A stretch of 64,000 nt of DNA from the IMG/VR virus record IMGVR_UViG_3300017569_000030, positions 17,472 through 81,471 of that record; one strand, written 5' to 3'. The DNA comes from a virus. Lineage: Duplodnaviria > Caudoviricetes. The position numbers were made by a program, and so were the translations under genes. The notes below the pieces were generated by a model. That model ran no database searches. It was not told the origin of the DNA and worked only from the letters and a program-made list of their open reading frames with translations. Shown piece after piece: positions 1,966 through 34,769 of the stretch; the first letter of the stretch is position 1, and each line of letters opens with the position of its first letter.

Positions 1966-2218
1966 TAAAGAATATATCGGTAAACTCTTGATTGAAAAAT
2001 TAAATCCTATTGGTTATTGTATTAGATTTGGATTAAATACTCCAGAAAAGCCGATGGTTATTTATGCTGAATTAGAAGATAAACCATTTCTTAAATTCTT
2101 AAGACAGGAATTAAAAGATAGAAGATTTAATTTAATATATTATGGAGAATTAAAATTAATTTATCCGTAGGATTGTAATCCAATAAATACTGCTTGTGGA
2201 TGTCAAAAGAAGAATTAA
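1910..2218 (+). CDS. Small protein between terminase and portal (about 102 aa)
   Basis: ATG 1910, reads through TAG 2168-2170 to TAA 2216-2218, ends CNPINTACGCQKKN; overlaps both neighbours. Confidence 0.7.
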
Positions 2219-4652
2219 TTGAAAAAACGGATAAAGCCATCAATGAACTAGTCTATGCAAAATATGATTTGCAGAAAGCATATAACTATTATAATGGTAT
2301 AAGAGATGCAGACTAGTTCAGATACCTTGAAGAGGTGTATGGTGCAAATACTCCTACCACTCTTCACTTTACTCCTTTAATTAAAAAACATATTGACGCT
2401 TTAATTGGAGAATATCTTGGAACTCCAATTATTCCAAAGATATTCTGCAAGGACAGTGAAACAATAAATAATATAGATAGAGAGAAGCAACTTAAAATCG
2501 CTTCTGAGTTACATACTTATTTAAAAGGTCATTTAAAAAATTCTATTCTCAATTTTCTTGATGGTAAAAATATAAATGATGGATTGGTTGAATAGCAACT
2601 TTCAAGAATAGTTTAGGATATTAATAACACTTTTGAATCTGAGTATGAAATTGCTGCACAAAATGTTGTAGAATATATTATGCAGTCAAGAGATACTGAT
2701 ATAATGAATGTATTACGTGATTTATTATTAGACTTGTTAATTACTGGTTATGCTTTTTATCGAGTGAAACCAACAGTTGAGAATGATAATATTAAAATTC
2801 AAGCTCTTAATCCATTAAATACATTCATAGATCGAAACTTTGATTCTCCTTATGTTAAAAATTCATATCGCGCAGTAGTTCGTAATTGGATGACTAAAAA
2901 TCAAATTTTAAATGAATACGGTAAGGAGATGAACAGAGATGATAGAAAGCTACTTGATGAAAAATGGGATTCTGTATATGAAAATGCCATGTATTATGTT
3001 AGACTTGGTGAAACTAATGGTGTCCCTGTTACTGATGGATTACAAGGAGGCATTGAAGTAACTCCAGGTTATCCAGATAGTAAATCTGGTTTATTGCATG
3101 AATTAATACCTGTTTATGAGGTTGAATGGCTTGAAACAGATAAAGATTTTATCATGTAGCGATATAAAACAATACGAATTGGCGAAGAAATATATCTATT
3201 AAGAGGTAAAGATGAGAAAGTAATGCGTAGTAAATCAAATCCATCTTATTGTGGTTTATCTATTAATGGCATTTACTTTCTTAATCGAGGTGTTAAACCA
3301 TATTCAATGGTTTTAGCTTGTGCACACCTCCAGGATTGATTATACTAGTTCTGGTTAAATTTCGAGAATTGCTGGAAACCCCTGAGAGTCTTGAATACTT
3401 TAAGTAATAATTTCAAGAATTGGGAAATCAGCAGCTGAGCTTCTAAAAGAAGAGAGTTCAACGACTAAATGTAGGATCAAGTGATCTGAAGTACGAAAAT
3501 ATTAATTTAATATATGATATAGTCTCAACATCTGATGAAAATCAGAGCAGCAGCGAATCGCAAGATTCTAATGCGGACGTAAAATAACGAATTACGTCGA
3601 AGAAAATGTAGTATGACCTCTTAAATTTCTATCGTGATAATTTAATTGCTAACAGCGGAACAATAGGTGATTGGATTGATTACACTCTTATACCTGCTGA
3701 ATTAGGTGTTAATTTACCAGAGAGATTAGTTAAATGGTAGGCTTTAAAGAAGCAAGGAATTGGTGTTTTGGATTCTTCTCAAGAGGGAAGATTAGCTTCT
3801 GGACAAGCCCCTCTTAATACTATCTTTAATGGTTTCGATAACACCGTTAAAACACAGGCAGTACAAGCAATTCAATTAGCTATTGACGCGATAGAACAAA
3901 CTTGTTCTTCTATTACTGGTGTATTTAGAGAAAGATTAAATGGAATAGAACAAAGAGATGCAGTAACAAACATTAAGATTGGATAGAATAATTCATTTAT
4001 TATTACTAAACAATATTATCACTAGATGGATTTAATAGTCAATGAAATGTTACTTGATTGTCTTAATTTAGCGAAAGTTGTTTACAAAAATGGATTGACT
4101 GGAACTATTATTTTAGGTGATAAATATTAGAAAGTATTTACTGCACTACCAGAATATTTCACTTTAACCGATCATGATATACGAATTTTAACTAGTACAG
4201 ATGTCGTAAAGGATCTAGAACAGTTAAAAACAATTATTCCTGAATTTGTTAAATCTGGAGGATTACCGCCAGATATTATTATAGAAGCTATAACTAGTAA
4301 GAGTATCCCAGATCTTAAATATAAGGTTAAAAAAGCTATGCAAGTTTAGAAAGATGAAGCAAACCAAGTTCAACAATTAACTCAATAGAATTAGGAGCTT
4401 CAAAGTTAGCTTAAATAGTTAAATACTGAACTACAGAAAGCATAGAAGAAAATAGAAACTCTTAACTAGAACAAATTAGAATTAGAACAACAAGAAATGT
4501 AGACTAAATACCAAATTGAATGGTATAAAGCACAAACAGATAGAACATATAAAGAAGCTACTAATGAGGAATAGAAAAGAAGAACTCAAGTTGAACTTAT
4601 GTAGCTTTCAGATGGAAATCCTTATAATGATAAAATAAGATAGATTGACTAA
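2200..4652 (+). CDS. Portal protein, spliced join(2200..3336,3609..4652), about 726 aa
   Basis: Follows terminase; motifs HIDALIGEYL, DLLITGYAFYRV, ITGVFRERLNGIEQRDAV resemble crAss-like portals. Exon 1 ends ACAHLQD, exon 2 begins QYDLLNFYRDN; TAA at 4650-4652. Confidence 0.88.
3337..3608 (+). ncRNA. Group I intron (272 nt, no ORF) in portal
   Basis: P1: exon CCAGGAU pairs with GUUCUGG, ending in a U.G pair. P10: UAUACUA pairs with 3' exon UAGUAUG. Core motifs GAATTGCTGGAAAC, AATCAGCAGC, TTCAACGACTA, GATATAGTCT; terminal G3608. Confidence 0.92.
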
Positions 4653-7384: not shown

Positions 7385-9681
7385 GTCAATATAGTGAAAC
7401 AATAGGTAGCTTCAGCAGAACTGGTAATTACCCCCTTGAAGCGAATTATATATTCTCCACTGAATCTGAACTAAAAGCCTTCTATGAAGAGCCTTTAAAT
7501 AAAGTAACTTTACATAAAGGCTTATTAAAAGTAGTTGAGCAGGATGAAGATGGAAATCAAGCGTTATATTGGGTTACTGAAAATGAAGGTAACTTAAGTT
7601 TTCAGAAGCTAATAACACTCATAGATATTGAAACTATCAATGAATAGATTGATGATTTGATTGAAGCTCTCAATCAAGAAATTGAGGAGAGAAAAGCTAA
7701 AGACGAAGAATTACTTGGAACAGATGATCTAACTACAATTCCTGGTAATTATGATAGTATTTATGATTTAGCAGAAGCTCTTGTTGAGTTACAACAGAAT
7801 GTCGATACCTTAGAAGAAGAACTTAAAGCAGCTGATGCATTATTAAAGAAAGAACTACAAGCTACAGTAGGAACAGAAGAGGATGATATTGTTGAGTATT
7901 TAAAAACATTAGATTATCCAAGTCTCACTAAAGTATCTGAGGACTTACATAAATTCCTTAATACAATAGATGATACAGATACATCTATTAATACTCTTCC
8001 AGAACTTCAGAAGTTCTTAGAAGGGTATGAATATACTCATCCACTTTCAGAAGTATTTACTGATTTTTGGAATAAAATCGCAGGTGATCCACTGCCTACT
8101 ACATAGTTTAGCACTTTAAGAGGAATACAAGATTTTGTAGAAACTCTTGCATCTGTTACTACTAATAGAGACAATAATTTACAGACAGAAATAAATCAAA
8201 CACAAGTAGGTGTTGGATTAAATAGTGATGGTTCTTATAGTGCAGACAAAGAAACTCATTATTTACAAGATGCTACTTCTGTTATGAATGCTTTAAAAAC
8301 ATTAGACGCTCTAATTTATACAGCAATTCAAGAATATGTATTAGAAGCATCTAATAAAGATATAGTTCCTCTTGAAGTAGTAAAAACATCTAATGGCTAT
8401 ACTATTGGTGCTAAATTATCTTTATCCAATACTACAGGTAATCAACTTTTAAAGAAAGATGATGGTTTATATTATTCTACCACATTAGATTACTCGAAAG
8501 GTGTAATCACTTTAAAAGTTAATGACAATATAATAGCTCAATATGATTTAAATATATCTTCAATAGTCAAGGATGCTTATTATAGTTCAGATACAGAAGA
8601 ATTAGTATTAGTATTTAATACTGCAGATGGAACTGGACAAACAATCCGAATCCCAGTTGCTGCTCTGATAACAGAATGGGAAGTTGATAATTCCGGTCCA
8701 AGTAAAGTAGTTGAATTAACTAAGACTAGATCTGTTAGTGGTAGTGATACATTATCTGGAGATGTTAGAATTTCAACTAACACAGATAATATATTAGAAA
8801 AAGATGGGAATACTTTATTAGTAAAGGGTACTTCTGATAATTTAACCCACAACGGACAATCTCTTGAAACATATTTAACTAATTTAGAAAGTACTGCTAA
8901 CACTCTTTCTACTAACTTAAATGCAGAAATTAATAGAGCTACTACTAAAGAAACTGAACTTGAAAATAAAATTTCTTTAGAAGAAGTTAGGGCTGCTAAA
9001 GCAGAAGAGAATATTCAAAGTTAGTTAGATTCAGCGGTTGAACGTATAAGTGCTACTGAAACAGCAATTACTAATGAAGTAGATAGAGCTAAAGAATCTG
9101 AATAGAGTATCAAAGATTCAGTAACTAAGGTTTCCAATGATTTAACTACAGAAGTTAATCGTGCAACAGAAAAGGAAACTTCACTAGAAAAAGAAATTAA
9201 TGATACTAATACTGCTCTCAATACTTTATCTAATACTGTTACCAATATCTCTAATAGCGTTAGTGAAGCTGGATCAGAAATAAAAGACTTACAAGATGCG
9301 TTATCTGAAGAGATAACTCGAGCAAAAACAGCGGAAGAAAAGAATGCAACTGATATAGCTACTAAAGCTCCAATTGATTCTCCTACCTTTACTGGAATGC
9401 CGCAAGTATAGACTTCTCCAGATATAGATGATGCATCACAAAGAATACCTTCTACAAATTGGGTAACTGAAAAAATTAATAGTATTGTTGCAACCCCTAT
9501 AGAGGATTTATCAAATCACATTAAGGATTACAACAATCCTCATAAAGTAACTGCAGAATAGCTTAGTGTTTACACTAAATCTGAAGTAGATGATAAGTTA
9601 GATGATAAAGCTGATTTAGTTGACGGAAAAGTACTTTCTAGTCAATTACCAGACAGTTTAGTAAATTGGATTGACGTATAA
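7381..9681 (+). CDS. Putative fibre protein (766 aa) with coiled-coil ExxRAxxxE repeats
   Basis: Joins track ORFs 7381, 7657 and 8284 through TAG; TAA 9679-9681; KAPIDSPTFTG and NHIKDYNNPHKVTA are typical phage fibre motifs. Confidence 0.78.
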
Positions 9682-9682
9682 T

Positions 9683-12151
9683 ATGGCAGCTGTAAATTTT
9701 TATAGAGGTTTAAAAACAAAATATAGTGAGTTAGTATATACTGATGGTATATTTTTCGCAACTGACACACAAGAAATTATAATGAACGGTAAGAGTTTTG
9801 GAGGTGGTTCTATTAAAAGTGCTTCATTCTCAAACGGAGTTTTAACTCTCACTTTTTTATCTGGAGAAACCATTGATATTGCTCTTTCCAATGCCACAAC
9901 GACAGAAGCAGGTCTTATGTCTGCTTCTGATAAAACAAGCCTAGATTTACTTGCAAGTGGAGCAGTTTGTGGTGTAACTTATAATGCAGATTCACGTAAG
10001 CTATTGCTTACAGACAAAGATGGAACACAAATAGGTGAAGTTCTGTTAGTATATGCTACCGATTCTAGAGCAGGTCTTATGTCTGCTTCTGATAAAATTC
10101 ATCTAGACGCAGCACAAGAAAACGTAATTGAAGAAGTACAAGTAGATGGTAATGCTTTAACTGTAACAGATAAAGCTGTTAATGTTGATTTATCTGGTAA
10201 GCAAGACAAGCTAACCGCAGGTGATAATATTACTATTGATGGTACTACAATCAGTGCAAAAGATACTACTTATAGTAATGCAAGTGCTGATACTGCTGGA
10301 CTTATGAGTGCAGAGGATAAAGCGAAGTTAGATACAATATCAGAAGGATCTACAAAAGTTGTTGTAGATACGGAATTGAGTAGTACTTCGACCAATCCTG
10401 TATAGAATAAAGTTATTAATAGTGCTTTATCTAATAAGGTAGATAAAGAAACTGGCAAGGGTCTTTCAACTAATGATTATACTACAGTAGAAAAGACCAA
10501 GTTAGCAGCTATTGAAGAAGGTGCTAATAAAACAATTATTGATACAGAATTAAGTGCAACTTCAACTAATCCAGTTGCAAATAATGTTCTTAATAATATT
10601 ATAACCGGATTAAATACTTCTATTACAGAAACATCAGAATCATTAGAGTCATTACAAAGTGAATATACAACAGAAATACAGGATATTAGTACTTCATTAG
10701 ATTCTAAAGCTGACTTAGGCAGTGATGGAAAAATAATAACTAGTCAACTTCCTTCATACGTTGATGATGTGCTAGAATACGCTACTCTTACTTTATTCCC
10801 AACAACTGGTGAAACAGGTAAGATTTATGTTGCTCTAGATACTAATTTAACTTATAGATGGTCTGGTACTACTTATGTAGAGATAAGCCCTTCTTTAGCT
10901 TTAGGTGAAACATCATCTACAGCTTATGCAGGTGATAAAGGTGCAGCTAACAAAGCGGCTCTTGACAGTTTACCTTCAGAAATTGTTACTAGTGTAGTAA
11001 AAGCAGGCTCTTCTACTACATATAATTCAATAGGTGTTGGTTATTCTCAAAAAGATTCTAATAATCAATATCCACTTGGACAATCACGTACAATATAGTT
11101 CGGTTCAGCTACCGCAACTGTAGCAGGATTGATGTCCGCAGCAGATAAAGATAAATTAGACAATATAGAAGCTGAAGCTAATGTAAATAAGATTGAATCT
11201 ATTAAGCTAAATAGTTCAACATTAGATATTGCTGATGATAAATCTGTAAATATTGATCTCTCTAATTATCCTACTACATCGGATATGAAGGATGCAATAA
11301 TTTCTACAGCTAGCCAAATGCAAACAAAATTAGTTGCGGGAGATAATATTACTATTAGTGGTAATACTATTAGCGCAACTGATACTACTTATAATGTTGC
11401 AACAGTAAGTGCTGATGGATTAATGTCTGCAAATGATAAGATTGCTGTTAATGGTATGTTTGATGAAATAGTTCCATTCTATGGAATTAAATCTATAGAA
11501 AGTGCCTCTATTAGTGATGACACCTTTAGTTTAGATGGAACTCGTGATCCAGATGATCCAGAATCAACATCTTTATCAAGTGGAACTAGTTATGTAATAT
11601 ATAATGATACTACTAGTTAGTTTTTAATGTATTGGACTAATAGAAGAACAGGTTCTAGTGCACAACCTTCCACTATATATGTTAAATACTTTGCAAAATG
11701 GACTAGTTCAAAGTATTATGGAACTTATAGTAACTATTATAAAACAGGGTATGGACAAACAGGCAAAGGAATACTTTCTGATGTTATATTTGTTGATCAA
11801 ACTACAGGTAAACATTATCAATACGATGATGGTTTAGTAGAAATTGCTTGTTCTCCTATAGCTACTGAAAGTTCTCTGGGTGTAGTAAAAGTTGGAGAGG
11901 GTCTTACTATTGATTCTGCAGGAACACTTAGTTTCGATCAAGAAATGCTCGTTGGTGTTGAGGATGGATTAACTGATGAAGAAACTGCTAGGCAAACCGC
12001 TGATACTACTCTTCAAACTAACATAGATACGGAAGTAACTAGAGCAAAGGAAGCAGAGACCACATTAACAAATACTATTGCTACTCTTCAAACTACTATA
12101 GATGAATTAACTGCTAGAGTTGCAGCTCTTGAAAATGTTGTAAGTTGGTAA
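9683..12151 (+). CDS. Putative tail fibre protein (822 aa) with repeated (A/D)GLMSAxDK and KLxAGDNITI..TISAxDTTY units
   Basis: ATG 9683; frame continuous through TAG 10403, 11096 and 11618; TAA 12149-12151. Confidence 0.8.
9907..10097 (+). repeat. Exact 29-nt direct repeat AGCAGGTCTTATGTCTGCTTCTGATAAAA (9907-9935 and 10069-10097)
   Basis: Read directly; encodes AGLMSASDK twice. Confidence 0.9.
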
Positions 12152-12152
12152 T

Positions 12153-14087
12153 ATGATTGATACGAAAATAAGACAATAGGGCTTAAAAGCCGATTATGCA
12201 CCTGATACAACACACAAGGATGTTATTTATCTAACTACAGATACAGGTGAAATTTATTTTAATGGAGAAACTTTAGGAATATAGATAGAAGGAGAAGGTG
12301 CAGAAAACCAAATCTTAGTTTACAATGGCGGAACAAGAAAAGGTAAATGGGTTGATGCAGGAGATATATTGGAATTAAAAGATTATGTTTCTTATGGTGT
12401 TCTAGTAGATGAGTCGATCTCTGATCCTCATCTAACTAGAACTGGAAACTTGTCTTTACACAGATCTTTACCAGTTCAATCACAATATAAGGGTTGTGTT
12501 GTTAAAGACAATAAAGTAGTATATTACTTAGATGAAGATGACTGGACATATAAAGAAAATGGTAATCCTAGCAAGGGATATACAGAACAACTTTCAGTTT
12601 TAGATGGAACTGATGGGGATGTCTGTGTTGAAATACCTTAGTTTTATGGATATTGTTATGACTTAGGTGATGGCAAATGGGATGTTCGTATTTCTTTAAC
12701 TAAAGTTTCAGATGATTGGTTTGAAATACCCCACATGTATTGGGGCGCATACAAAGGATGTATTGATAGAACCAGTACTTATAAAGCTAGAAGTGTACAT
12801 AATACTACTGCTAACTTTAGAGGTGGATCAAATAGTCCTACTTATGATTATTTACTAGAGACTAATCCATTCTTCTCTCATTTAGGTAAAGCATCGACTG
12901 GTTTTACTCGCCCTCAATGGCGAACTTATTGTATTAATAATGGTGCACAACCTACCAATTATGAATATTATAAATGGGTAGTATATTGGGCATTTGTAAT
13001 TGAATATGCTAACTTTAATTCTCAAGAAGCGGTAAATTCAGAATTAACTGATGAAGGCTATCATCAAGGTGGATTAGGTTATGGTTTAAGTGATTCAAAT
13101 TCTGTTAGTAGTACAGGAACTTATGCAACAATACCTTGTGGATATACTAACAGTTTAGGAAATCACTCTGGAGAGGTTAAAATTGTTACTGATTCTTGTG
13201 ATCTGAAATATGGTGTAGATTCTAGTATTTATAAATGGTATAGTTATAATGGATGTGTTTAGCAATAGACAACTGTTGAGACAACATGGGATGGAGGTAG
13301 TTGTGAGAGTAAAAATCTTCATATAACATACTTAAATAATACTACTAATATGTAGTTATATAGTGACAACAATGATGCAGGAACTAGATATTACAGTTTT
13401 ACAAGTGTTCCTACTGATTGTACTATTACTTTTAGAATAGATGGAAGCACATTAGCAGATCAAACAGAATATAATAAAGAAGAAAATGGTGATACTTATA
13501 ATGTAACATATCTAGTGGAATGGGGTGTAAATAATTCTAGAAAAACAATACATTTTGAAGGATATAAAGGAGATACGGATATATACTTCTATTATCCAGG
13601 TAATTATTCAACAAATGATCCTGTAGTTGCTACTACATTAGCAGCTGTTACTGGAGCATGCCCTAGATATAGAGGAATTGAAAGTCCCTTTGCTGAAATC
13701 TGGGAATTTCTAGATGGTTGTATAGTAACTTATGATACAGATTCAAAGCAAAATAAATTATATACAAGTCTAGAATGTCCATATTCTGATACTATTAGTG
13801 ATTCTGATTATAGAGGAGATGTTTCTAATAGCGGCGGCTTTGGTAAAAAGCTTTTAATGGGTTCTAGGGCTGATTTTTTCCCTGTTACTACTGGTGGAAG
13901 TTCTAGTACTTATACTTGTGATAGTTTATGGGTAAATACTAGTGCCGAATTGCGCCTCTTGGTCTCTGGTGGGCGCGCGGTCTACGGTTCTTCTTGCGGT
14001 CTCGGCTGCTTGGATGCGTACCGCGGGTTGTCGTACTCGCATGCCGTTATCGGCGGTCGGCTCTTTTTCCTTTCGGTCGGGGCTTGA
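12153..14087 (+). CDS. DGR target protein 1 (644 aa), putative receptor-binding protein with C-terminal C-type-lectin-like domain
   Basis: ATG 12153 to TGA 14085-14087 through TAGs. EYANFNSQEA and PRYRGIESPFAEIWEFLDG motifs; the 3' end is VR1. Confidence 0.88.
13955..14085 (+). repeat. DGR variable repeat VR1
   Basis: 131 nt, ungapped against 14139-14269; 25 mismatches, 24 of them at TR adenines. Confidence 0.95.
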
Positions 14088-14138
14088 CTACCTTGAGACA
14101 TACACTTAAATATTTCTAGTTAATTTTAAAAATAAAAA

Positions 14139-14269
14139 CCTCTTGAGCTCTGGTGGGAACGCGAACAACAGTTCTTCTTGCAGTCTCAGCTACTTGAATG
14201 CGAACAACAGGTTGTCGAACTCGAATGCCAATATCAGCAGTCAGCTCTTTTTCCTTTCAGTCAGGGCTT
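14139..14269 (+). ncRNA. DGR template repeat TR1
   Basis: AAC/AAT-rich non-coding copy of VR1, upstream of the RT. Confidence 0.95.
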
Positions 14270-14389
14270 TTATGGTTATTATGAAATTCTTTTTATTAAT
14301 GAAATTAACTATGCCACTAGGCAAAAAATTACGTATCTAACGGCACATTAGTAAACTATATTGAAAGTGTGCTACAACAAAAGAATATC

Positions 14390-15505
14390 ATGAAAAGAAT
14401 TGATAATTTATATGATAAAATTTGTGATTTATCAAATATTATAGATGCCGCAGCAAATGCTGCCGAAAACAAAAGTAAATAGTATGGAGTACGAATGTTT
14501 CTGAAAAACTCCTTTTAGAATTGTATTAATTTATCTGAGTTATTAAAAAAGGAGCAATATAAAACTTCTCCATATAAATTATTTACAATATATGAACCAA
14601 AAGAACGTCTATTATATAAATTGCCATTTTATCCAGATAGAATTGTTCATCACGCAATAATAAATATACTTGAACCAATTTGGATGAAATTGTTTACACG
14701 AGATACTTATTCCTGTGTTAAGGGAAGAGGTATTCACGGATTAGTAAAAAAGCTAACCAAAGATTTACGATATAATGTTGATGAGACAAAGTATTGTTTA
14801 AAATTAGACATTAAAAAGTTTTATCCAAGTATTGATCACGATATATTAAAACAGATAATACGTAGGAAGATCAAAGATAAAAAAGTATTAAAATTATTAG
14901 ATGAAATTATTGATTCTGCTGAAGGTGTACCAATTGGTAACTATTTATCGTAGTATTTTGCCAATCTATATTTAACTTATTTTGATCATATAATCAAAGA
15001 ATAGAAAAGAGTAAAATATTATTATAGATATGCAGATGATATAGTAATATTATCCTCTAATAAACAAGAATTACATGAGTTACTGACTTTTATTAAAGAA
15101 TATCTTTGGAATGAATTGAAATTAAAAGTTAAAGAAAACTATTAGATTTTTCCAGTTGATAAAAGAGGGATTGATTATGTGGGATATGTATTTTATCATA
15201 CTCATGTTTTATTAAGGAAAAGAATTAAACAAAATATCTTAAAAGCTGCGAGAAATAAGAATATCAAATCTCTTAAAACATATAAAGGTTGGCTTAAATA
15301 TTGTGATTCTAAACATTTAATGCAAAAAATATATAAATTATCTGGATTAAATTTAGATAATTGGAATGGCAGACAAGTTAATAGAATTGAATTAGATGGA
15401 GGAATAATTAAACATATACATAAAATGAAAAATTATTATAATATAGATTTCGTTAAGAATAACAAATCATATTATACAAAAGTTAAGAAATTATGGTTAA
15501 AATAA
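14390..15505 (+). CDS. DGR reverse transcriptase (371 aa, five in-frame TAG)
   Basis: MKRIDNLY start; PFYPDRIVHHA, LKLDIKKFYPSI, GVPIGNYLSQ (Q encoded by TAG 14951-14953), YRYADD (YADD at 15029-15040), GIDYVGY. Confidence 0.95.
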
Positions 15506-17271
15506 GACAAAAAGGTTTAAAGGCTGATTATAAACCAACTTCTACACATAAAGATGTAATTTATATTACAACTGACACTAATGAAATTCTATTAAATAAT
15601 TAGCCTTATATTTTAGATATTGATGATCCTACTGAAATATTATCAAATTAGCATTTAGTTTTAGCTAACACTGGAAAAGGAGTTACAAAAGGTAAATGGG
15701 AGAATATTTCAGAAATTGATCCAAAGCTATAGTAGCAATTATTAGATGAATACGCTTATGGTGTTGAATGGAATTTTGAAACATCTTCTGACCCGCATTT
15801 AACTAGAGTAGGTAATCTTACAATGCATAAGACACTTCCTATTTAGTCTAAATTAAAAGGATGTGTTGCACAAGCAGATCAAATTATGTATTGGCTAAAT
15901 GAAGAAGATTGGAGATTCAAGAAAGCTCCCACGACTCTTGCTGATCAAACTCTTTCAGTAGCCGATGGAGTTTATACTATTGTTAATGATGTTTTCTCCA
16001 CACTTCAATATGAAAACCAGTATATAAAAGTTAATGATATAGCTTGTAAAGTTACAGCCATAGATACAACAACTTCAACTGCAACTCTTTCTCCAGAAGA
16101 AGATATTGAAGCAGGTACTTATGATGTAGAACTTGGTGCTGTTCTTAACGGATATGATGGGACAGTACGAGTATATATCCCTGCCTTCTATATTAAATCA
16201 GTATCTGAAGATACTGTTAGACAGGTATGGTTATCAACAGTTAAAATAGATGATACTTGGACATACTAGCCTTCAATTCTAGTTGATGCATATAGATGTA
16301 CAGTACTTAATACCGTTCCTACAGACTTTGGTTATCTCTCTACACTTCCAGTAAATAGTGCTATTTCTGTAGTGAATGTGAAAGATTACTGCCGTGGAGG
16401 CAATAATCGAAGTACATATGACACTTACCTTACAGACGATCCAAATAGAACTGATTTAGGCAAACCTCGTACTAATATAGGTAGATCTTCTATGAGGACT
16501 TATGCACAGAATGTAGGGAACTATATGATGTCTTATGATGAGTATAAGAATATATTTTACTGGTTATATGTAGTTGAATATGCAAACTTTAATAGCCAAG
16601 AGGCGTATAATGCAGTTCTAACAGATGATGGATATAAACAAGGTGGATTAGGAAATGGAGTAACAACCTGGGGTTATACATAGTGGCAGTATTATAACAA
16701 TGCATGTCCTCTTACTCCTTGTGGATATGGTAACAAACTTGGAAATGGCACAGGTGTTATTGGTTTAGTAACACCAGAATTTATAAGTGGAACAAGTACA
16801 GTTGCTACTCATACCTTTTCAATGCCTCGTTGGAGAGGATTTGATAATCCATTCGGAGATATTTGGACAAATCTAGATGGCATTATAGTTGACAATGATG
16901 TAGATAATCACGCAAATAATATGTGCTATGTATATACTTGCTCTGATCATACTAAGTGTGCAGATACTATTACTTCTGATTATATTAAAACAGGTGAACA
17001 ACTATATTCATGTGGATATATTAAAACATTTGATTTAGGAGATGCTGCACATATTATTCCTAATGCTGTAGGTGGCAATACTACATAGTATATTTGTGAT
17101 TATAATTGGGTAAGTAATAAGAATACTACTTTGAAGACGGTGATTGTGGGCGGCGGCGCGTATAGCGGTGCTATTGCTGGTCTCGGCGACTTCAATTCGG
17201 TTAATGCGGTCTCGGCTGCTTGGGCGATTGTTGGCTTTCGGTCGGTCTCTTCCTTTATGTCTGTTGTCTAA
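15493..17271 (+). CDS. DGR target protein 2 (592 aa), paralogue of target 1
   Basis: N terminus KIRQKGLKADYKPTSTHKDVIYITTDT matches KIRQQGLKADYAPDTTHKDVIYLTTDT of target 1; EYANFNSQEA, PRWRGFDNPFGDIWTNLDG; ends in VR2; TAA 17269-17271. Confidence 0.88.
17140..17269 (+). repeat. DGR variable repeat VR2
   Basis: 130 nt, ungapped against 17493-17622; 15 mismatches, all at TR adenines. Confidence 0.95.
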
Positions 17272-17382
17272 TGGATGGTGTAAAAAGGATAGTGTAAAAA
17301 GAGTAAAATAATATTTAAGGAAAATAAAATAGTATAAATAATATAGGAAAATAGGTGTTTTCCAATAAAACCGAAGAAAGCG

Positions 17383-17434
17383 GATAGGAGTACCCAATCT
17401 CCTATCTACGCCCTTCGTAGGAATATATCTACGA
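17383..17434 (+). other. Two hairpins upstream of TR2 (GATAGGAG/CTCCTATC 17383-17406; TCGTAG/CTACGA 17415-17434)
   Basis: Perfect inverted repeats read directly; function inferred (DGR RNA 5' structure or DNA cruciform after VR2). Confidence 0.5.
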
Positions 17435-17492
17435 CATAAGACAGCTGGAGTGATAAAAAAGTTGTTTTATTGTTGCACAAAACACAATCAAA

Positions 17493-17622
17493 GTGATTGT
17501 AGGCAGCAACGCGAATAACAGTGCTAATGCTGGTCTCAGCAACTTCAATTCGAATAATGCAGTCTCGGCTGCTTAGGCGATTGTTGGCTTTCGGTCAGTC
17601 TCTTCCTTTATGTCTGTTGTCT
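17493..17622 (+). ncRNA. DGR template repeat TR2
   Basis: Non-coding adenine-bearing copy of VR2, followed by the same spacer motif as TR1. Confidence 0.93.
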
Positions 17623-17789
17623 TTTTGAAAAATGTGTTTTATATTTTTAAATTTTTGTAAGATATATTTCCTTGCCACTTGGCAAAAGATGACATAAAGA
17701 CCTCAATTTTGAGGATGAATCTGTGTTAGTAACGTAAGTGAATACTCGGTATTACACTCTTTTCAGTAAAAAATAATTTAAATAGATAT

Positions 17790-18413
17790 ATGAAGAGGAT
17801 AAACAATTTATATTCTCAAATATACAAAACTAAAAATATTTTCCTAGCTGATAAATGTGCTAGAAAAGCTAAGAGAAATAGTTATGGAGTAAAAGATATA
17901 ACTTTTAAATATGAAATTCCAATTAATGGCTCTGCAACAGGTGAAATTCCAAATGATGTAACAGCATCAGTTCCAAGATGGAGAGGTTTTGATAATTTCT
18001 TTGGGGATTTAGAGACTAAATTTAATTATTTATGGGCAACTAATAAAACAGAAGATGGCAAAACTCGTATTACTGATATTTAGGGTAATTATTATACAGT
18101 AGATTCTGGTTATGGTCCTGTTAATTCTTTTTATTTAGGTAAAACAGCAGAAATTATTCCTAAAGCATGTGAAGATGAGGTAAGCAGTAATACTTATACT
18201 TGTTTATGTGTAAATTTTTCGGACGGCGATCTTAGCATTTATTCTAATATTGAAGCTTCAGTATTTCTCTTTCCAACATCTTCCCATTACCTCGGTATAG
18301 TCTTTTATTAGAATAAATATGAGGCTTGTACTCGTAATGAATATGCAATCGGAGAACATATTTATGATACTTGTCCAGTTTTTACTTCTTATATTGAGTA
18401 CGTAGAGCCATAA
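17790..18413 (+). pseudogene. Chimeric ORF (207 aa): about 35 aa DGR-RT N terminus fused to a lectin-type target C-terminal fragment
   Basis: MKRINNLYSQIYKTKNIFLADKCARKAKRNSYGVK aligns with the RT start MKRIDNLYDKICDLSNIIDAAANAAENKSKQYGVR; then SVPRWRGFDNFFGDL matches target 2. No RT catalytic motifs. Confidence 0.75.
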
Positions 18414-18434: not shown

Positions 18435-19148
18435 ATGTACACAGCAATAAAAATAAATTCAATAACTAAACCAGATACTTTTATTAATTTAAATAATGGA
18501 ATTTGGTATTATAACTTTAATATTACAGAAGAAACTGTAACAGTATATAATGAAACAGGAGAAGATAAGCAAACTAGATATACTTGGGTTCAAGTAAGAA
18601 TTAAAGGTACTCCAACTCTTGAAAAATGTTAGGAAGCTATACTTAAAGCATTTAAAAATGAAGATGGAAATACTCTTTATTCTCTTCTAACTATTGATCG
18701 TACCTCTACTGATCAAATAGAGGATATTATATATAATATTAAAGTAGATTTTGGTCAAGAAGTAGCTTTATCTGAAGTTGATCAAGCTAAAAAAGATATT
18801 ACAAGGAAAATAAGTGAGTATGATACTTCAACAAATGTTAATTCTTTCTTTCTAAATGGAATACAAGTTTGGTTAGATAAAAGTACTAGAGTAGGGTTAA
18901 TGAACTCACTTACTATAGAAAAAGAAGCAGGTAAAACTGAATCTACTTTGTGGTTTAATAATATTAGTTTAACAATTAATATAGAAGCTGCCATGTAGAT
19001 GTTGAGTTCTTTGGAAATATATGCATTAGAATGTTATAATCAAACTGCTACACATAAAGCTGCAGTTGAAGCTCTTACCACTGCAGAAGAAATAAATAAT
19101 TATGATTATACAACTGGTTATCCAGAAAAATTAACATTCTCAATCTAA
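18435..19148 (+). CDS. DUF4376-like protein (237 aa)
   Basis: VNSFFLNGIQVWLDKSTRVGLMNS ... LEIYALECYNQTATHKAAV ... YDYTTGYP recognised as DUF4376-like; TAATG coupling to the next gene. Confidence 0.75.
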
Positions 19149-29700: not shown

Positions 29701-32700
29701 ATATAATAACTTATATTAAAGCAGGAACCTTTTCTAAAGGAGAATATTTCTATTCTTATGAACTATATGATGAGTATGTTTCAAAACCTAGATTAGATTT
29801 AAAAGGAAAGACATTATATTTATATGATTTGGATGGAAATTTTATTAAATCGGAATTTATAGTAGATTTTAAACGAGAATTTGATATTCATACATATAAA
29901 GAAATTTCTAATATAATTCTAAATAAATCTAGCTTAAAAGGATTTCAAATTAGATTAGAATATACTGAAACAATAGAGAAATATTCTCCAAAAAATAAGA
30001 AACGTGCCGTAGAAGTTTATACTATTGACGGTTCTTTAGTTGGTGAATTTGAAAGTGTTACTCTTGCTTGCAAAACTCTTAAACTTGATTCATCTACTGT
30101 ATCTAAAATATTAAGAGGAGTAGCAAAAACAACCAAAGGATATACTATAAAATATAAAAATTAAAGATATAGTCTAAACAATATAGAAATATATTGATTA
30201 ATATATATTGTATGCTTTAACAAAGGCAATATAGATGTGAATTAACTTACGGTTCACAATAAACTCCTTTAATTGCTGGGACCTCTTACAGTGTAAGACA
30301 ATCAGCAGCGAAGATTCTACAATAGAATAACGTTCAACGACTATCGAAAACATAGCATTTATTGCAAAGAAGTGAGTAGAGTACATTAAAAATAATGGAA
30401 ACAGGGAGCATCTCTAAATAAGAGATGATGATATAGTCTAAACTATATAGTAATATATAGCTAATATATTGGGTAAACCAACAATCACAGATCCTAAACT
30501 CCTGTGTTGGGATCTTGCAGCGTGAGCTGTATAACAAATAACTCCTTGAATTGCATGAAACTCCTAAATTGTTAGGACAACCTGCAGCTAAGCCTTTTAT
30601 AGGAAAGTTCAACGACTATCGAAAGCGTAGGTATAAATACTGAGTAAGTGAGTAGAGTAGAGAGTAAAATCTCGAAGTGGGGAGCGTCTCTAAACAAGAG
30701 ATGATGATATAGTCTAACCTATATAGTAATATATAGTTAATATATGGACACAGGTCGCGGTATTTATATAGGTGAGGGTAGAGTATCTGCCCCTTAGTAT
30801 CGTAAGATACTTCGATCAGCTGCTTAATTCGGTGAACCCTGAGATGGGAATACCGAGCCAAGTAAGATAATAAAATTATCTGGGCGTGTGTAACGACTAT
30901 GATATATTATAAATTAAAATTTTCATCAATAATTAATAATTATTAGTATGCAAAAAAGAAAAAAATCACTGTTAATTAGCTTAGTATTAGGTGATGGACA
31001 TATTGCTAAATCTGGAAAGGGTAATTGCTTGCAAATTACTCATAGTATTAAACAAAAAGAATATTTTGAATGGAAACGCCAATTAATTGCAGATCTTTTA
31101 GATTGTAATTTACCTGGAGTTTATCATAGAGAGGATTCAAGACATAACGAATTTTCTCTTAATAAAAGTCATAGATATTTTCGTATCATTAGAAAATGGT
31201 TATATAAAAATGGTATTAAGCGATTTAATAAAAAAATATTAGATTATATTACCGCAGAGGGATTGGCTATCTGGTTTATGGATGATGGTAGTCATTGTGT
31301 AAATCGCAGAAAATCTACAGGAAAGGTAATGAGTCATACTTTTAAATTATATACATTTACTAATGAGGAAGACACAGATAATATTATTCAAATGTTTAAA
31401 GAAAAATTTGGCATTAATGTTTATAAATTAAAATATATAAAAAAGGACGGTTCTCTTAGTTATTATTTACAATGGAAAACAAGAGAAGGTAGAAAGTTTT
31501 GTAATTTAATTCGTCCTTATGTTATCCCGTCAATGCAATATAAATTATTGCAACCAGGAGAATAATATATCTTTAACAGCAGCCAACCAGAAATGGTTGA
31601 AGATATAGTCTAAACAAATACAAATTAAAGTATTTGATTAACAAAATTGTTGATACCTCAAATAGAAGCCGCATGTAACAAATATTGTTACAATAATAAA
31701 CCAACATTACCTCTGTTTAACCAGATTATGAACGATATGGCTGACAAAGCCCAGTCTGATACTGGTGGGCACTGGGTGTTTATAGTAAACCGCAAATTAT
31801 GGAATGATGTGAACACAGTTCTTGGTGAGTATCTCGCTAATTATAGAACTGATGGTACTTATATGTATTCCAAGTCTGCAAACAAAGGTATGGGTGGTTA
31901 TGTCAAGGTCGGAGCAACCTTCGACACATATATTTACGCCGGTGAATTGATTGCCGCATAAATTAAAAATAATTTATGAAAATTTATTTAATTGCTGGAA
32001 CATCTTGAAGTTTAATAAGCTATAAAGGAATTAGTAATAATAAACTTGAAAGCTCAAAAATTATTAAATATAAGACAATCAGCAGCGAAGCTTCTAAACT
32101 ACTAAAGCATGAAGAACGTTCAACGATCATCCCTTTGGGAGTAGATTAATATATTAATCGAAATAATAAACATCTTATGGAATTAAAAAATATAGTTTAT
32201 ATAACAGTTAACTTATGTAATAGTAAATTTTACTTTGGGGTTCACAGAACTAATCCAGAAGTTTTTGACGGATATATTGGTGCAGGAATCTACAGACAAT
32301 CAAATGCCACATTAGATACTGCCTTTCATAAAGCTGTGCGAAAATATGGTTATGATAATTTTAAAAGAACTATAATTGCTATTTTTCCAGATACAGAAGA
32401 AGGAAGAGAGTAGGCTTTTAATTTAGAAGCAAGTATAGTAACTAAAACTTTGATTAAAAGTAAAAATTGTTATAATTCTGCTTTAGGAGGGCAGGGAAGT
32501 ACAAATATAGATACAAAACGTGTTTATATGTTTAATTTGAAAGGAAATTTTTTAAGAAGTTTTTCTAGTATTAGAGAAGCAGCAAACTTTATTGATTCTA
32601 CAAATGAATATAATGTTTTAAAAGCTATTAGAAATAATTGTTTGGGAAAAAATAGTAACAGCAGTTATGGTTATTTTTGGAGTTATAAGAAAAAATTTGA

Positions 32701-34769
32701 AAATAATAATCATTGTAATAGAAAAGTAGCACAATACACAATTTCTGGAAAATTTCTTAGATATTATGATAGTATGACTGAAGCAGAACAAGAGCTTCAA
32801 ATAAGTACAATATATCAAGCTATTATTAAAAAATTTACTTCTGGAGGATTTCAATGGAGATATTATGATGGTGATACATCTGATATATCGACTTTGATTT
32901 CTAGGAAAAATAAAAATTTAGTATTACCTATTAAAATGTTTTCTAAAGATGGAACATTTATAAAAGAGTATAACTGTGTAAACGATTGTGTAAAAGAAAA
33001 TCCAAATTTATCTGCCAGTTAGATAAATAGAGTTTTAACCAAAATAATTAAATCTCATAAAGGTTTTACTTTTACATACAAAGATGAAGATATGATCTAG
33101 TCTATTTAGAAATAAATAGTATATCGAATGAAATTTCGTTTGTGGTAGATAGAGCATTAACTCGTGAATATCCAGATAAGGGTTATGGAGTATGCATCGA
33201 TCTTACCGCAGATAAAACATCTGGAACTCCTGCTGTTGCAAAATTCAGTATCACTGGAAAAGATTTCATGACCAACAAACTTATAGGCGTAGGCGGGTAT
33301 GATGGAAAAAGTTCTGGTGAAGTTGCAAGCAATGTAGCAGGTTCTAAGCTAATAATGATGGGCTTAAAAATATTTATTTGACAGCGTAGGTCCATCAATA
33401 AAAAATTCTTTTAAGTGCTGGAAAGTAGCATAACTGATATTAACTTGTTAAGTTTTAATAATAATATTAGTGCTATAATCAGCAGCCAAGATGTATTTGT
33501 AATTCCTTTAGGAATTAATACACAAGGTTCAACGACTAGGCGCAAGCCATAGATTAATTTATTAAAATTAAATCGAAATGGAGAATAATCAAATCAAATA
33601 TATTGTATATTGTACTACCTGTACAATTAATAAATTCATTTATATTGGTTATCATAAAACCAAAAATCCAGATATTTTTGATGGATATATAGGAAATGGA
33701 ATTTATATAAATAATCCAAGTACCTATAATAATCCTAAACAAAAATTTCAATATGCTGTAAAGAAATATGGTCCTTCTAATTTTATAAGAAGTACAATTG
33801 CCGTATTTAATACCGAAGAAGAAGCGTTAGATTTAGAAGCGGAAATAGTAAATGAAGAATTTCTTAAACGGTCTGATGTATATAACGTGGCATTAGGAGG
33901 TTTAGGAGGGAATTGGATAATAACAGCACATAAAACTTATCAATATGATTCTGAAGGAAACTTTTTAAATGAATATGTATCTATTAAAGATGCTTCTATG
34001 AAAATTAACCGATCTTTCAGAAGTTTATGGAGGGCTATTAATGATAAATGTAAGTGTGGAGGATTTTTTTGGACAGAAACGAAATTTGATAAATTAGATT
34101 TATCAAAAATGAAATTATATGAAGGATTACACACGATACCTACTTTTCAATATGATAATTTGGGAAATTATGAATGTTGTTATGATTCAATTTCTGATGC
34201 TGGAAGAATATTAAATATTCATTCAGCAAATATTTCTAGAGCAATTAAATTAGGAGAAATATGTAAAAATAAGTATTTTACAAATATCTATGCTCCTAAC
34301 TATAGCATTTCAAAAGATAGACAAATTAAATCCTTTGAAATACACCAATATGATTTAGCAGGTAAATATATTACCTCATATAAAAATATGCAAGAAGCTA
34401 AAAATAAATTAAAAATTAAGGCAAATATTTATACTGCTATTAAATTGGGGCAAACGTGTGGAGGTTATCAATGGAATTTTGAAAAGTTGCCTCAAATGCC
34501 TCCTGTTAAATCTAAATCTGGAAAAGCTCGAAGAGTTGGTAAATTTGATAAAAATAATAATCTTGTGGAAGAATATAAGTCCTTAGCAGAGTGCAAAAGA
34601 ATTAATGGAGCTTCAGTAGAACACGTTATTAGGGGTAGAAATGAATTTTCTAAGGGGTACAAATATAAATATTTAGATGATTAAAGATATAGTCTGAAAT
34701 TTAGTCAATTTTGACGCTGGTGTAGCGGCTTTCACTCCTTATAGGTCAGTAATTGTCCGTGAGGCTTAA
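26701..34769 (+). CDS. Major capsid protein, 10 exons: 26701-26742, 26985-27479, 28464-28496, 28738-28918, 30211-30242, 30472-30495, 30747-30779, 31650-31943, 33127-33364, 34714-34769 (1428 nt, 475 aa)
   Basis: Exons join in frame: ..PTMG|QTKT..PELNEEG|YSKFQSQMELH|RNFMTTFR..MNTG|LCFNKGNIDVN|GKPTITDP|DTGRGIYIGEG|LIPQIE..YIYAG|NEISFVVDRAL..KLIMMG|YAGVAAFTPYRS, resembling crAss-like MCPs. Each 5' junction has a P1 helix ending in U.G. Confidence 0.9.
26743..26984 (+). ncRNA. MCP group I intron 1 (242 nt, no ORF)
   Basis: P1 GGGU/GCCC; P10 AGUUUG/CAAACU; AATCAGCAG, TTCAACGACTA, GATATAGTCT. Confidence 0.9.
27480..28463 (+). mobile_element. MCP group I intron 2 (984 nt) with GIY-YIG endonuclease
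   Basis: P1 GAGGAAGGU/GCUUUCCUC; core motifs flank the ORF; ends AATAATTG. Confidence 0.9.
27705..28418 (+). CDS. GIY-YIG homing endonuclease with NUMOD1-like repeats (237 aa)
   Basis: YIVYQTTNKVNGKIYIGVH, YLGNG, EADLVN..YNL. Confidence 0.87.
   Translation: MKYIVYQTTNKVNGKIYIGVHKTETPDDFDGYLGNGIYIYRPSSYMHPKTYFQYAVKKYGIKNFIRTTIKVFDIEADAYKMEADLVNDEFIQRDDTYNLILGGKDVSQFMVKVYMYDLNGNYEMEFESLIAAAKYLNPNAKGGGHLPRAIKHRHQFLGHQFSYEKVDNIGPIKAMKNRTHVEKPYTGGKVGRFDKEGNLLETFETMTDCVKAGYKNAKLVALGKRNICKGFVFKYLD
28497..28737 (+). ncRNA. MCP group I intron 3 (241 nt, no ORF), apparent terminal A
   Basis: P1 GAGUUGCAU/GUGCAACUU; P10 AUUACG/CGUAAU places the 3' splice site after A28737. Confidence 0.85.
28919..30210 (+). 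mobile_element. MCP group I intron 4 (1292 nt, phase 1) with GIY-YIG endonuclease
   Basis: P1 CAGGGU/GCCCUG; core motifs; terminal G30210. Confidence 0.88.
29064..30164 (+). CDS. GIY-YIG homing endonuclease with NUMOD1-like repeats (366 aa)
   Basis: YIVYQTININNNKIYVGVH; repeated YQ(F/Y)DxxG units. Confidence 0.87.
   Translation: MENNFKYIVYQTININNNKIYVGVHKTKDPSIFDGYIGNGVNIYHPSTYVKPKYPFQYAVKKYGTSSFRRSVLYIFDNDKMAYNKEAEIVNEEFIKRSDTYNVILSGKIHPTYYIRSCIYQFDLQGNLVKKWNDIYDVSEFLCTWKESVYSAIRHKSRLYNFYWSYSDSINLSEYSSPNESRKVYQYNKDGKCIAIYNTIGEAARYNNVQPGHIITYIKAGTFSKGEYFYSYELYDEYVSKPRLDLKGKTLYLYDLDGNFIKSEFIVDFKREFDIHTYKEISNIILNKSSLKGFQIRLEYTETIEKYSPKNKKRAVEVYTIDGSLVGEFESVTLACKTLKLDSSTVSKILRGVAKTTKGYTIKYKN
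30243..30471 (+). ncRNA. MCP group I intron 5 (229 nt, no ORF)
   Basis: P1 UGUGAAU/GUUCACA; core nearly identical to intron 3. Confidence 0.9.
30496..30746 (+). ncRNA. MCP group I intron 6 (251 nt, no ORF)
   Basis: P1 AGAUCCU/GGGAUCU; P10 CCUGUGUU/GACACAGG. Confidence 0.9.
30780..31649 (+). mobile_element. MCP group I intron 7 (870 nt) with LAGLIDADG-type endonuclease
   Basis: P1 GGGU/GCCC; different core (AATTCGGTGAA..AATACCGAG..GTAACGACTA..AAGATATAGTCT); terminal G31649. Confidence 0.87.
30948..31565 (+). CDS. LAGLIDADG-family homing endonuclease (205 aa)
   Basis: Two helices LISLVLGDGHI and GLAIWFMDDGS. Confidence 0.87.
   Translation: MQKRKKSLLISLVLGDGHIAKSGKGNCLQITHSIKQKEYFEWKRQLIADLLDCNLPGVYHREDSRHNEFSLNKSHRYFRIIRKWLYKNGIKRFNKKILDYITAEGLAIWFMDDGSHCVNRRKSTGKVMSHTFKLYTFTNEEDTDNIIQMFKEKFGINVYKLKYIKKDGSLSYYLQWKTREGRKFCNLIRPYVIPSMQYKLLQPGE
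31944..33126 (+). mobile_element. MCP group I intron 8 (1183 nt) with GIY-YIG endonuclease
   Basis: P7 is GATCA (32125-32129)/TGATC (33093-33097); terminal G33126. Confidence 0.85.
32177..33115 (+). CDS. GIY-YIG homing endonuclease (312 aa with TAG=Gln)
   Basis: IVYITVNLCNSKFYFGVH; track ORFs 32177 and 32450 join through TAG 32411; first TAA at 33113-33115. Confidence 0.8.
33365..34713 (+). mobile_element. MCP group I intron 9 (1349 nt, phase 1) with GIY-YIG endonuclease
   Basis: P1 UGAUGGGCU/GGUCCAUCA; P10 CAGCGU/ACGCUG; terminal G34713. Confidence 0.88.
33578..34684 (+). CDS. GIY-YIG homing endonuclease with NUMOD1-like repeats (368 aa)
   Basis: YIVYCTTCTINKFIYIGYH; EAEIVNEEFLKRSDVYNV shared with the 29064 ORF. 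Confidence 0.87.
   Translation: MENNQIKYIVYCTTCTINKFIYIGYHKTKNPDIFDGYIGNGIYINNPSTYNNPKQKFQYAVKKYGPSNFIRSTIAVFNTEEEALDLEAEIVNEEFLKRSDVYNVALGGLGGNWIITAHKTYQYDSEGNFLNEYVSIKDASMKINRSFRSLWRAINDKCKCGGFFWTETKFDKLDLSKMKLYEGLHTIPTFQYDNLGNYECCYDSISDAGRILNIHSANISRAIKLGEICKNKYFTNIYAPNYSISKDRQIKSFEIHQYDLAGKYITSYKNMQEAKNKLKIKANIYTAIKLGQTCGGYQWNFEKLPQMPPVKSKSGKARRVGKFDKNNNLVEEYKSLAECKRINGASVEHVIRGRNEFSKGYKYKYLDD

Follow-up and report, generated by a model that had tools for sequence, protein, structure and literature searches.

A tandem diversity-generating retroelement (DGR) locus is encoded at positions 12,153 to 18,413 of a 64,000-nt stretch of DNA from a Caudoviricetes virus, a putative crAss-like phage of the gut (the stretch is referred to as the window; positions 17,472 to 81,471 of IMG/VR record IMGVR_UViG_3300017569_000030). 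The locus carries two different pairs of template repeat (TR) and variable repeat (VR), each with its own target gene, and a single intact reverse transcriptase (RT), termed RT1. Sequence comparisons are consistent with RT1 serving both templates, TR1 and TR2, and this reading is given a rough probability of 55%. It draws on the intact state of the second cassette, on a structured spacer RNA element held in common by both cassettes and other crAss-like phage DGRs, and on a deletion scar at the former place of a second RT. The parent record is a linear sequence of 81 kb, 49% complete according to CheckV, and is the sequence meant below by "the record".

Under translation tables 11 and 4 only short open reading frames (ORFs) were obtained at the locus, whereas reading TAG as glutamine yielded long, tightly packed genes on the plus strand, in the order target1-VR1-TR1-spacer-RT1 followed by target2-VR2-TR2-spacer and an "RT stub" ORF (Table 1). 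The direct-repeat families found are VR1 with TR1 and VR2 with TR2. Pair 1 has 25 mismatches over 131 nt, 24 of them at TR adenines (16 A>G, 3 A>C, and 5 A>T) together with one adjacent G>T, while all 15 mismatches over the 130 nt of pair 2 fall at TR adenines and 104 of 104 non-adenine sites are identical. The changes in both pairs mostly affect the first two positions of AAY and AGY codons, and both VRs end at the stop codon of their target. TR1 and TR2 are 67% identical, each has one VR in the record, and cross matches at non-adenine sites (approximately 50%) equal the background; no cross-templating between the pairs was seen in this comparison over the 81 kb. The initial annotation had proposed the two-cassette layout, the adenine counts of 24 of 25 and 15 of 15, and distantly related TRs with private VRs; the first was borne out by the TAG-recoded ORFs and direct repeats, the second by a base-by-base count, and the third by the identity and background values just given. 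Cassette 2 is not decayed: besides its perfect non-adenine sites, target2 is open, and the helices P1 and P2 and the boxes of its spacer element are kept.

Some further features of the repeats can be described. A TR adenine followed by G is always G in the VR (10/10 and 7/7 sites in pairs 1 and 2, respectively, and 11/11 in the pair of a complete relative introduced below, L015:11603-12033), and adenines in other contexts have mixed outcomes. This pattern could stem from a context preference of the RTs or from selection for glycine where AGY templates a scaffold position. TR2 contains an in-frame TAG at 17574-17576, where VR2 has TGG; the codon is harmless because the phage reads TAG as glutamine. 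Two adjacent hairpins at 17383-17431, an 8-bp GATAGGAG/CTCCTATC stem followed by TCGTAG/CTACGA, fall between VR2 and TR2, which are 221 nt apart, compared with only 53 nt for VR1 and TR1.

RT1, whose start was set at the ATG at 14390 from the family alignment (the ORF listing had a GTG at 14369), matches RVT_1 at 2.4e-20, with both the YADD motif and the DGR hallmark IGNYLSQ intact. Its nearest GenBank matches are crAss-like DGR RTs with 50-56% identity, and its closest relative is the protein P0002 (78% identical). In keeping with the initial claim of only one intact RT, a single RVT_1 gene is present in the record, which covers about half of the genome, and the complete relative likewise has one RT, at the same locus. 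No match to Avd (PF05635) was detected in the record even at E<=1, and no ORF lies between VR and RT.

Variation of VR1 was followed from proteins only, by comparing a 190-aa table-11 fragment of target1 with two natural variants from its 90% cluster. Between P0139 and P0140, 11 of 44 residues differ within VR1 as against 1 of 145 outside it (p=3.7e-7), and over the three sequences codons with a TR1 adenine at position 1 or 2 vary more often (11/20) than other codons (3/23; p=0.008). Cassette 1 is complete, and the hypervariability of VR1 between near-identical strains indicates, at the protein level, that RT1 works and is active in nature on VR1. Three of the 14 strain-variable VR1 positions (residues 160, 175, and 177; approximately 13992-14045) derive from the adenine-free TR1 codons TCT, TCG, and GCC, which would mean that those strains have a different TR1 or that changes also arise at non-adenine sites. 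The exact TR1 and TR2 patterns had no match in IMG/VR, and the TR2 pattern had none in JGI metagenome contigs; the RT1 query returned no related loci from IMG/VR, and a profile of RT1 and P0002 returned none from metagenome contigs.

A common feature of the two cassettes is the spacer element downstream of each TR, one copy of which was found between TR and RT in 10 of the 10 reference crAss DGR loci inspected. The reference element consists of a 4-5-bp hairpin (P1) with AAAA, a linker, and a URGUA...GAAN core. Compensatory changes are found in P1 (TGCC/GGCA, TACC/GGTA, and TGGC/GCCA). RNAalifold applied to a MAFFT alignment gave P1 only, and the helix flanking the core (P2) was tested by a fixed-register script: the 7 nt before URGUA and the 7 nt after GAAN were paired in 64 of 77 cells, compared with 24-45 when the partner strand was slid, and several positions of P2 showed multiple compensatory pair types. 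Within the element of cassette 1 (Sp1), the P1 hairpin at 14312-14323 is followed by an A-run, and P2 joins 14342-14348 with 14367-14373 around a TAGTA...GAAA core. Its counterpart in cassette 2 (Sp2) has P1 at 17673-17684 and P2 formed by 17720-17726 with 17744-17750 around the TAGTA box at 17727, an extra 14-nt hairpin (17701-17714) being inserted in the linker. P2 pairs at 7/7 positions in Sp1 and at 5/7 in Sp2, with a conserved U.U mismatch; the latter score equals those of LMMB, cr55_1, and cr60_1, all of which have intact RTs.

A hidden Markov model (HMM) trained on nine reference crAss spacers alone had just two matches in the record, Sp2 with 37.1 bits (E 2e-10) and Sp1 with 20.2 bits (E 3.7e-5). 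Against Rfam, Sp1 scored 37.5 bits with RT-18 (gathering score 41.3) and 33.3 bits with RT-17 (gathering score 40.4), and Sp2 scored 25.4 bits with RT-17, all below threshold. Six of eight reference crAss loci also match RT-17, at 30.5-44.5 bits, with only cr6_1 passing the gathering score. RT-17 (RF03020) and RT-18 (RF03021) share with these spacers the plan of a hairpin with AAAA and a helix enclosing UAGUA...GAAA just upstream of the RT gene; the locus copies and most of the reference crAss spacers stay under the gathering thresholds, so that the architecture is common to them but formal membership is not. The crAss spacers look like a divergent subgroup of RT-17/RT-18-like motifs. Conservation of the element extends over RTs with mutual identities of only about 50%, and use of the TR2 RNA by RT1 is plausible because Sp2 keeps the features conserved across the RT clade.

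The second RT has left a recognizable scar. The 207-aa ORF at 17790-18413 opens with MKRINNLY..., as all RTs of the clade do, and a profile of 101 RT N-termini matched two ORFs in the record, RT1 (E 2e-19) and this one (E 2.5e-16), the second match covering model positions 1-37 only and ending after "YGVK". Further downstream, residues 58-140 of the chimera are 32% identical to residues 441-535 of target2 (E 8e-9), where VPRWRGFDNFFGD aligns with MPRWRGFDNPFGD of target2, and the rest of the chimera is also similar to target1 and to the cr85_1 tail protein. A deletion thus joined about codon 35 of RT2, in frame, to a third fibre paralogue ("target3"), of which the last ~150 codons are left. 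Accordingly, the description of this ORF as an RT stub in the initial annotation holds for its first 35 codons, the remainder being the C-terminus of that third target paralogue. The target3 fragment spans roughly the last 40% of the modelled domain, which resembles lectins and formylglycine-generating enzymes (FGE), over ~150 codons, and because only this share of the domain is present it is unlikely, judging from the model, to fold as a receptor-binding tip. It has no match to either TR and so no VR-like segment, and there is no space for a third TR because the next gene begins 21 nt beyond it.

The junction was traced by means of the first 97 codons of the ORF, which form a callable gene in the standard code. 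The exact 97-aa protein was present on 6 JGI contigs and the variants C23R and E75N+N79K on 2 contigs each, giving approximately 10 JGI contigs over the three variants P0122, P0123, and P0124; one of these is an independent 64-kb contig (64,308 bp) that also carries a target1 variant. Among strains, the chimera fragment is 97-99% identical and the neighbouring target1 fragment 96-97%. Since it occurs in three variants on about 10 contigs, the junction is older than the strain split and is no assembly artefact.

The order in which the cassettes were acquired can be judged from a complete relative (G001; locus L015), found through its target2 homologue. This 175,872-bp record is rated 100% complete and has one RT in the whole genome, within a sole cassette of the order target-VR-TR-spacer-RT followed by a homologue of the gene at 18435-19148; its VR and TR differ at 29 positions, 27 of them adenines. 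Its target protein is 53% identical to that of cassette 2 and at most 42% identical to that of cassette 1, its TR 77% identical to TR2 and 71% to TR1, and its spacer 67% identical to Sp2 and 56% to Sp1, these counterparts of TR2 and Sp2 being used there by an intact RT. The N-terminus of that RT is 56% identical to the RT2 stub, compared with 46% between the stub and the N-terminus of RT1. From these values the only cassette of the relative looks orthologous to cassette 2. Because it resembles cassette 2 more, cassette 2 seems to be the resident, and cassette 1 with RT1 the addition, as seen from this one relative; the addition probably took place by exchange of fibre modules at a shared N-terminal anchor sequence. 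The tandem arrangement claimed initially was thus recovered as two head-to-tail cassettes, for which duplication would be too simple an explanation, given the age and divergence of the cassettes and the apparent resident status of the one without an RT.

On the reading in which RT1 serves both templates, the locus would be an Avd-less DGR of the crAss type in which two old and divergent cassettes follow one another head to tail and both bring a fibre gene, VR, TR, and structured spacer RNA of their own. Cassette 1 would have entered the resident lineage by fibre-module exchange, and with RT1 present, RT2 would have become redundant and subsequently been lost by deletion. RT1 would now reverse-transcribe both the TR1-Sp1 and the TR2-Sp2 RNAs, recognizing each through the common spacer of P1 hairpin, A-run, and P2(TAGTA...GAA), so that two receptor-binding fibres would have their lectin-fold tips diversified independently. 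The fuller proposal, that the RT of a foreign fibre cassette replaced the resident RT and drives two template RNAs with TRs only 67% identical via a shared RT-17/18-like spacer, is put forward tentatively, at slightly less than even odds.

Several observations weigh against the use of TR2 by RT1. A search of the protein collection with a 60-aa table-11 fragment returned only a 64%-identical relative and no VR2 variants, and the 46-aa sense and 120-aa antisense ORFs over VR2 were not in that collection; the full-length target2 relatives P0130 and P0132 end at a TAG just ahead of VR2. The linker between P1 and P2 of Sp2 is 31 nt long owing to the hairpin insertion, compared with 14-20 nt in the others, and its RT-17 score of 25.4 bits is the lowest (reference spacers 30-44 bits). 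Over its 35 residues the stub shares just 46% identity with RT1, so the two enzymes could differ in RNA specificity. The polarity of resident and acquired cassette is taken from a single relative, and the record covers about half of the genome. Moreover, the scar strains are so close that an orphaned TR2/VR2 need not yet show decay; because they are 97-99% identical, the perfect pair 2 discriminates little between homing and recent orphaning. A decay-clock argument based on zero non-adenine mismatches since the deletion was dropped, these strains being too similar to give it power.

The most serious alternative is that cassette 2 was recently orphaned and is frozen: deletion of RT2 would have ended the diversification of target2, RT1 would be unable to use TR2-Sp2, and the relics would not have decayed yet. 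This has a substantial chance of being correct, distinctly below one half. RT loss is a common route of DGR decay in crAss-like phages (PMC11054128), cr85_1 with its RT fragment being a further case, and intact-looking relics are to be expected from scar strains that are so close; target2, however, is intact, and an active RT of the spacer-sharing clade is encoded 2 kb upstream, for which reason RT loss need not silence cassette 2. The extra TR-VR pairs of the three-TR phage Lera have been interpreted as decayed (PMC12386605), but unlike them pair 2 has zero non-adenine mismatches. Likewise, Sp2 carries an insertion and its RT-17 score lies under that of every reference spacer, yet it is nearer to the clade consensus than Sp1 and retains P1, P2, and both boxes. 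The age and divergence of the cassettes (TRs 67% and RT N-termini 46% identical) also fit an orphaned cassette 2.

It is improbable that TR2 is served by a second intact DGR RT from the remaining half of the genome. In favour of this alternative, the record is linear and 49% complete, but the complete 176-kb relative has its single RT at this locus, the RT directly follows the TR-spacer in 80/80 IMG/VR and 10/10 GenBank crAss loci, and the stub marks the former site of TR2's own RT. Misassembly would be conceivable in a metagenome, as would a rare defective form of a genome with two RTs, but either origin of the stub and junction is very improbable given the identical 97-aa fragment on 6 contigs and its two variants on 2 each, including the independent 64-kb contig.

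Table 1. Features of the DGR locus and the adjoining fibre gene, in window coordinates (TAG read as Gln).
Feature	Coordinates	Strand	Basis or remark
Upstream fibre-like gene, 826 aa, TAG=Q	9671..12151	+	Homologue is L_583 of the complete relative's locus L015
target1, 644 aa, 6 in-frame TAG=Gln	12153..14087	+	PHROG 5302 "tail protein", 6.8e-77
VR1, final 131 nt of target1	13955..14085	+	Mismatches to TR1 at adenines
TR1, non-coding template repeat of cassette 1; 30 adenines, 24 altered in VR1	14139..14269	+	
Sp1, spacer RNA element of cassette 1	14307..14389	+	Rfam, HMM, P2 pairing
RT1, 371 aa, 5 in-frame TAG; 13-nt overlap with target2 start	14390..15505	+	RVT_1
target2, 592 aa, 8 in-frame TAG	15493..17271	+	PHROG 5302, 1.9e-78
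VR2, final 130 nt of target2	17140..17269	+	Mismatches to TR2 at adenines
TR2, template repeat of cassette 2; 26 adenines	17493..17622	+	Repeat of VR2
Sp2, spacer RNA element of cassette 2	17668..17789	+	HMM, P2 pairing
RT2 stub, first 35 codons of second DGR RT	17790..17894	+	RT N-terminus profile
"target3", C-terminal fragment of third fibre paralogue, in frame with stub	17895..18413	+	target2 similarity

Both targets are homologous to crAss "tail / tail-collar fibre" proteins, and their description as paralogues agrees with an identity of 35-47%, in three segments, and with their common PHROG family (5302). A module made up of the C-terminal 378 residues of target2 recurs in 1,159 50%-identity clusters, where it always occupies the C-terminus and follows variable N-terminal parts. 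Pfam had no match for target1, target2, or the chimera, and PDB sequence searches, with single sequences and profiles, returned nothing for the targets. An AlphaFold2 model of the target2 module (pLDDT 92.7, pTM 0.92) had its best PDB match in the Thermus DGR variable protein TaqVP (5VF4; probability 1.0, TM 0.41-0.45), followed by Mtd and FGE, and on this model the C-terminus of target2 is predicted to adopt the C-type-lectin fold typical of DGR targets.

The locus is situated within the structural module, downstream of TerL, portal, and fibre genes. A ~33-aa N-terminal motif (KIRQxGLKADY...IYxTTDT) is shared by the 826-aa gene, target1 (12165-12263), and target2 (15499-15597), and also starts fibre genes in the relatives L014 and L015; the N-termini of the 826-aa protein and target2 match the same place in L014. 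The motif is probably a virion-attachment anchor and is likely to be a recombination site for fibre-module swaps. TerL matches PHROG 6681; its identity to ICTV Crassvirales is only about 27%, while two unclassified gut contigs reach 59% and 43%. The nearest TerL relatives had no DGR in the regions fetched. In the nearest GenBank relative, MT835539.1, the TerL homologue (59% identity) was matched at 30237-34331 as three pieces over 4.1 kb for a query of 645 aa, which suggests that the gene holds insertions or introns. The portal gene of the window is apparently split into two ORFs, 2194-3339 and 3606-4652, which correspond to the N- and C-terminal halves of PHROG 6547, and the 266-nt gap between them may be an intron or other interruption. 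A sigma-70 promoter scan was uninformative (21 sites versus 27 expected by chance).

The prototype DGR, that of BPP-1, performs adenine-specific TR-to-VR mutagenesis of a C-terminal lectin-fold tip and has a TR-RT spacer RNA, with Avd, one TR, one VR, and the standard genetic code. Adenine mutagenesis of a lectin-fold receptor-binding tip is common to it and the present locus, the fold of target2 matching Mtd, whereas here no Avd was found, two pairs are present, and TAG encodes glutamine. DGRs are established in crAss-like phages (PMC7290462), as the initial annotation had noted, and so are fragmentary DGR cassettes in these phages (PMC11054128); most crAss DGRs are without Avd (PMC12386605). 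The novelty implied in that annotation was overstated, for the layout is rare but has precedent and belongs to a known system: DGRs with several TRs and one RT have been published for the Zeta crAss-like phages Lera and ct1yV3 (PMC12386605), and multiple TRs were recorded for about 20% of the multi-VR loci among 948 DGRs surveyed (PMC6642488).

The three-TR DGR of Lera and ct1yV3 (PMC12386605) likewise comes from crAss-like phages of a group with amber recoding and combines several TR-VR pairs with one RT and lectin-fold fibre targets. Lera, however, has an Avd gene, of which none was found in the 81-kb record, and its TR2 and TR3 pairs show 3 and 10 non-adenine changes and were read as decayed, compared with zero in pair 2. 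A further difference from Lera is the scar left by the deletion, in which an RT stub runs into a fibre fragment; it shows that an RT of its own formerly accompanied the second TR. The Avd-less crAss cassettes (LMMB, PMC7290462; cr52_1, cr55_1, cr7_1, and others) share the target-VR-TR-RT order, RTs 50-56% identical, homologous tail-protein targets, and the structured TR-RT spacer, but these phages have one cassette, in contrast to two in tandem with different TRs, the second lacking its RT. Decayed crAss DGRs similarly have the RT gene deleted or fragmented with the target, and sometimes the TR, left behind; here an intact, active RT of the same clade is retained upstream. The multi-TR DGRs of the survey (PMC6642488), such as that of Stenotrophomonas SKA14 with two TRs and six VRs, also have more than one TR per RT, but are mostly bacterial and chromosomal, and an origin by loss of a second RT is not documented for them.

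A survey of related genomes, suggested in the initial annotation, covered 80 IMG/VR loci with RTs 52-65% identical to RT1 and ±8 kb around each, and found the two-cassette layout to be uncommon among the close relatives of this RT. None of the 80 had a second RT region or an RT N-terminal stub ORF in that range, and none had a second spacer, the latter being a weak negative in that the spacer HMM detected only 27/80 spacers. In the Steigviridae reference genome cr85_1 (NC_055883.1; L002:7373-7753), an unannotated RT fragment directly after the tail-protein gene shares 65% identity with RT1 residues 139-257 and represents a decayed DGR, at which no spacer element was detected. The annotated tail-protein coding sequences of cr52_1, cr53_1, cr6_1, cr60_1, and cr7_1 hold in-frame TAG, so that TAG recoding is also in use in the DGR target genes of these five reference phages.

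CrAss-like phages rank with the most abundant viruses of the gut, and it is the tips of their receptor-binding fibres that their DGRs rewrite. What is new here is a scar documenting a possible origin of a locus with two templates and one RT, which also offers a clean natural test of RT-template specificity: an active RT stands beside a second, different, intact template and spacer whose own RT has left a scar. The locus is therefore a natural experiment on a poorly tested point, the specificity of a DGR RT for its own template RNA. If RT1 does not use TR2, the locus would be an ordinary snapshot of early DGR decay. If RT1 uses both, this would explain the origin of published multi-TR DGRs, and the conserved spacer would be a portable recognition module, useful for multiplexed DGR engineering. 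It would then follow, with a confidence just under an even chance, that crAss-type DGR RTs are promiscuous and modular, and that multi-template DGRs may arise by cassette stacking followed by loss of the redundant RT.

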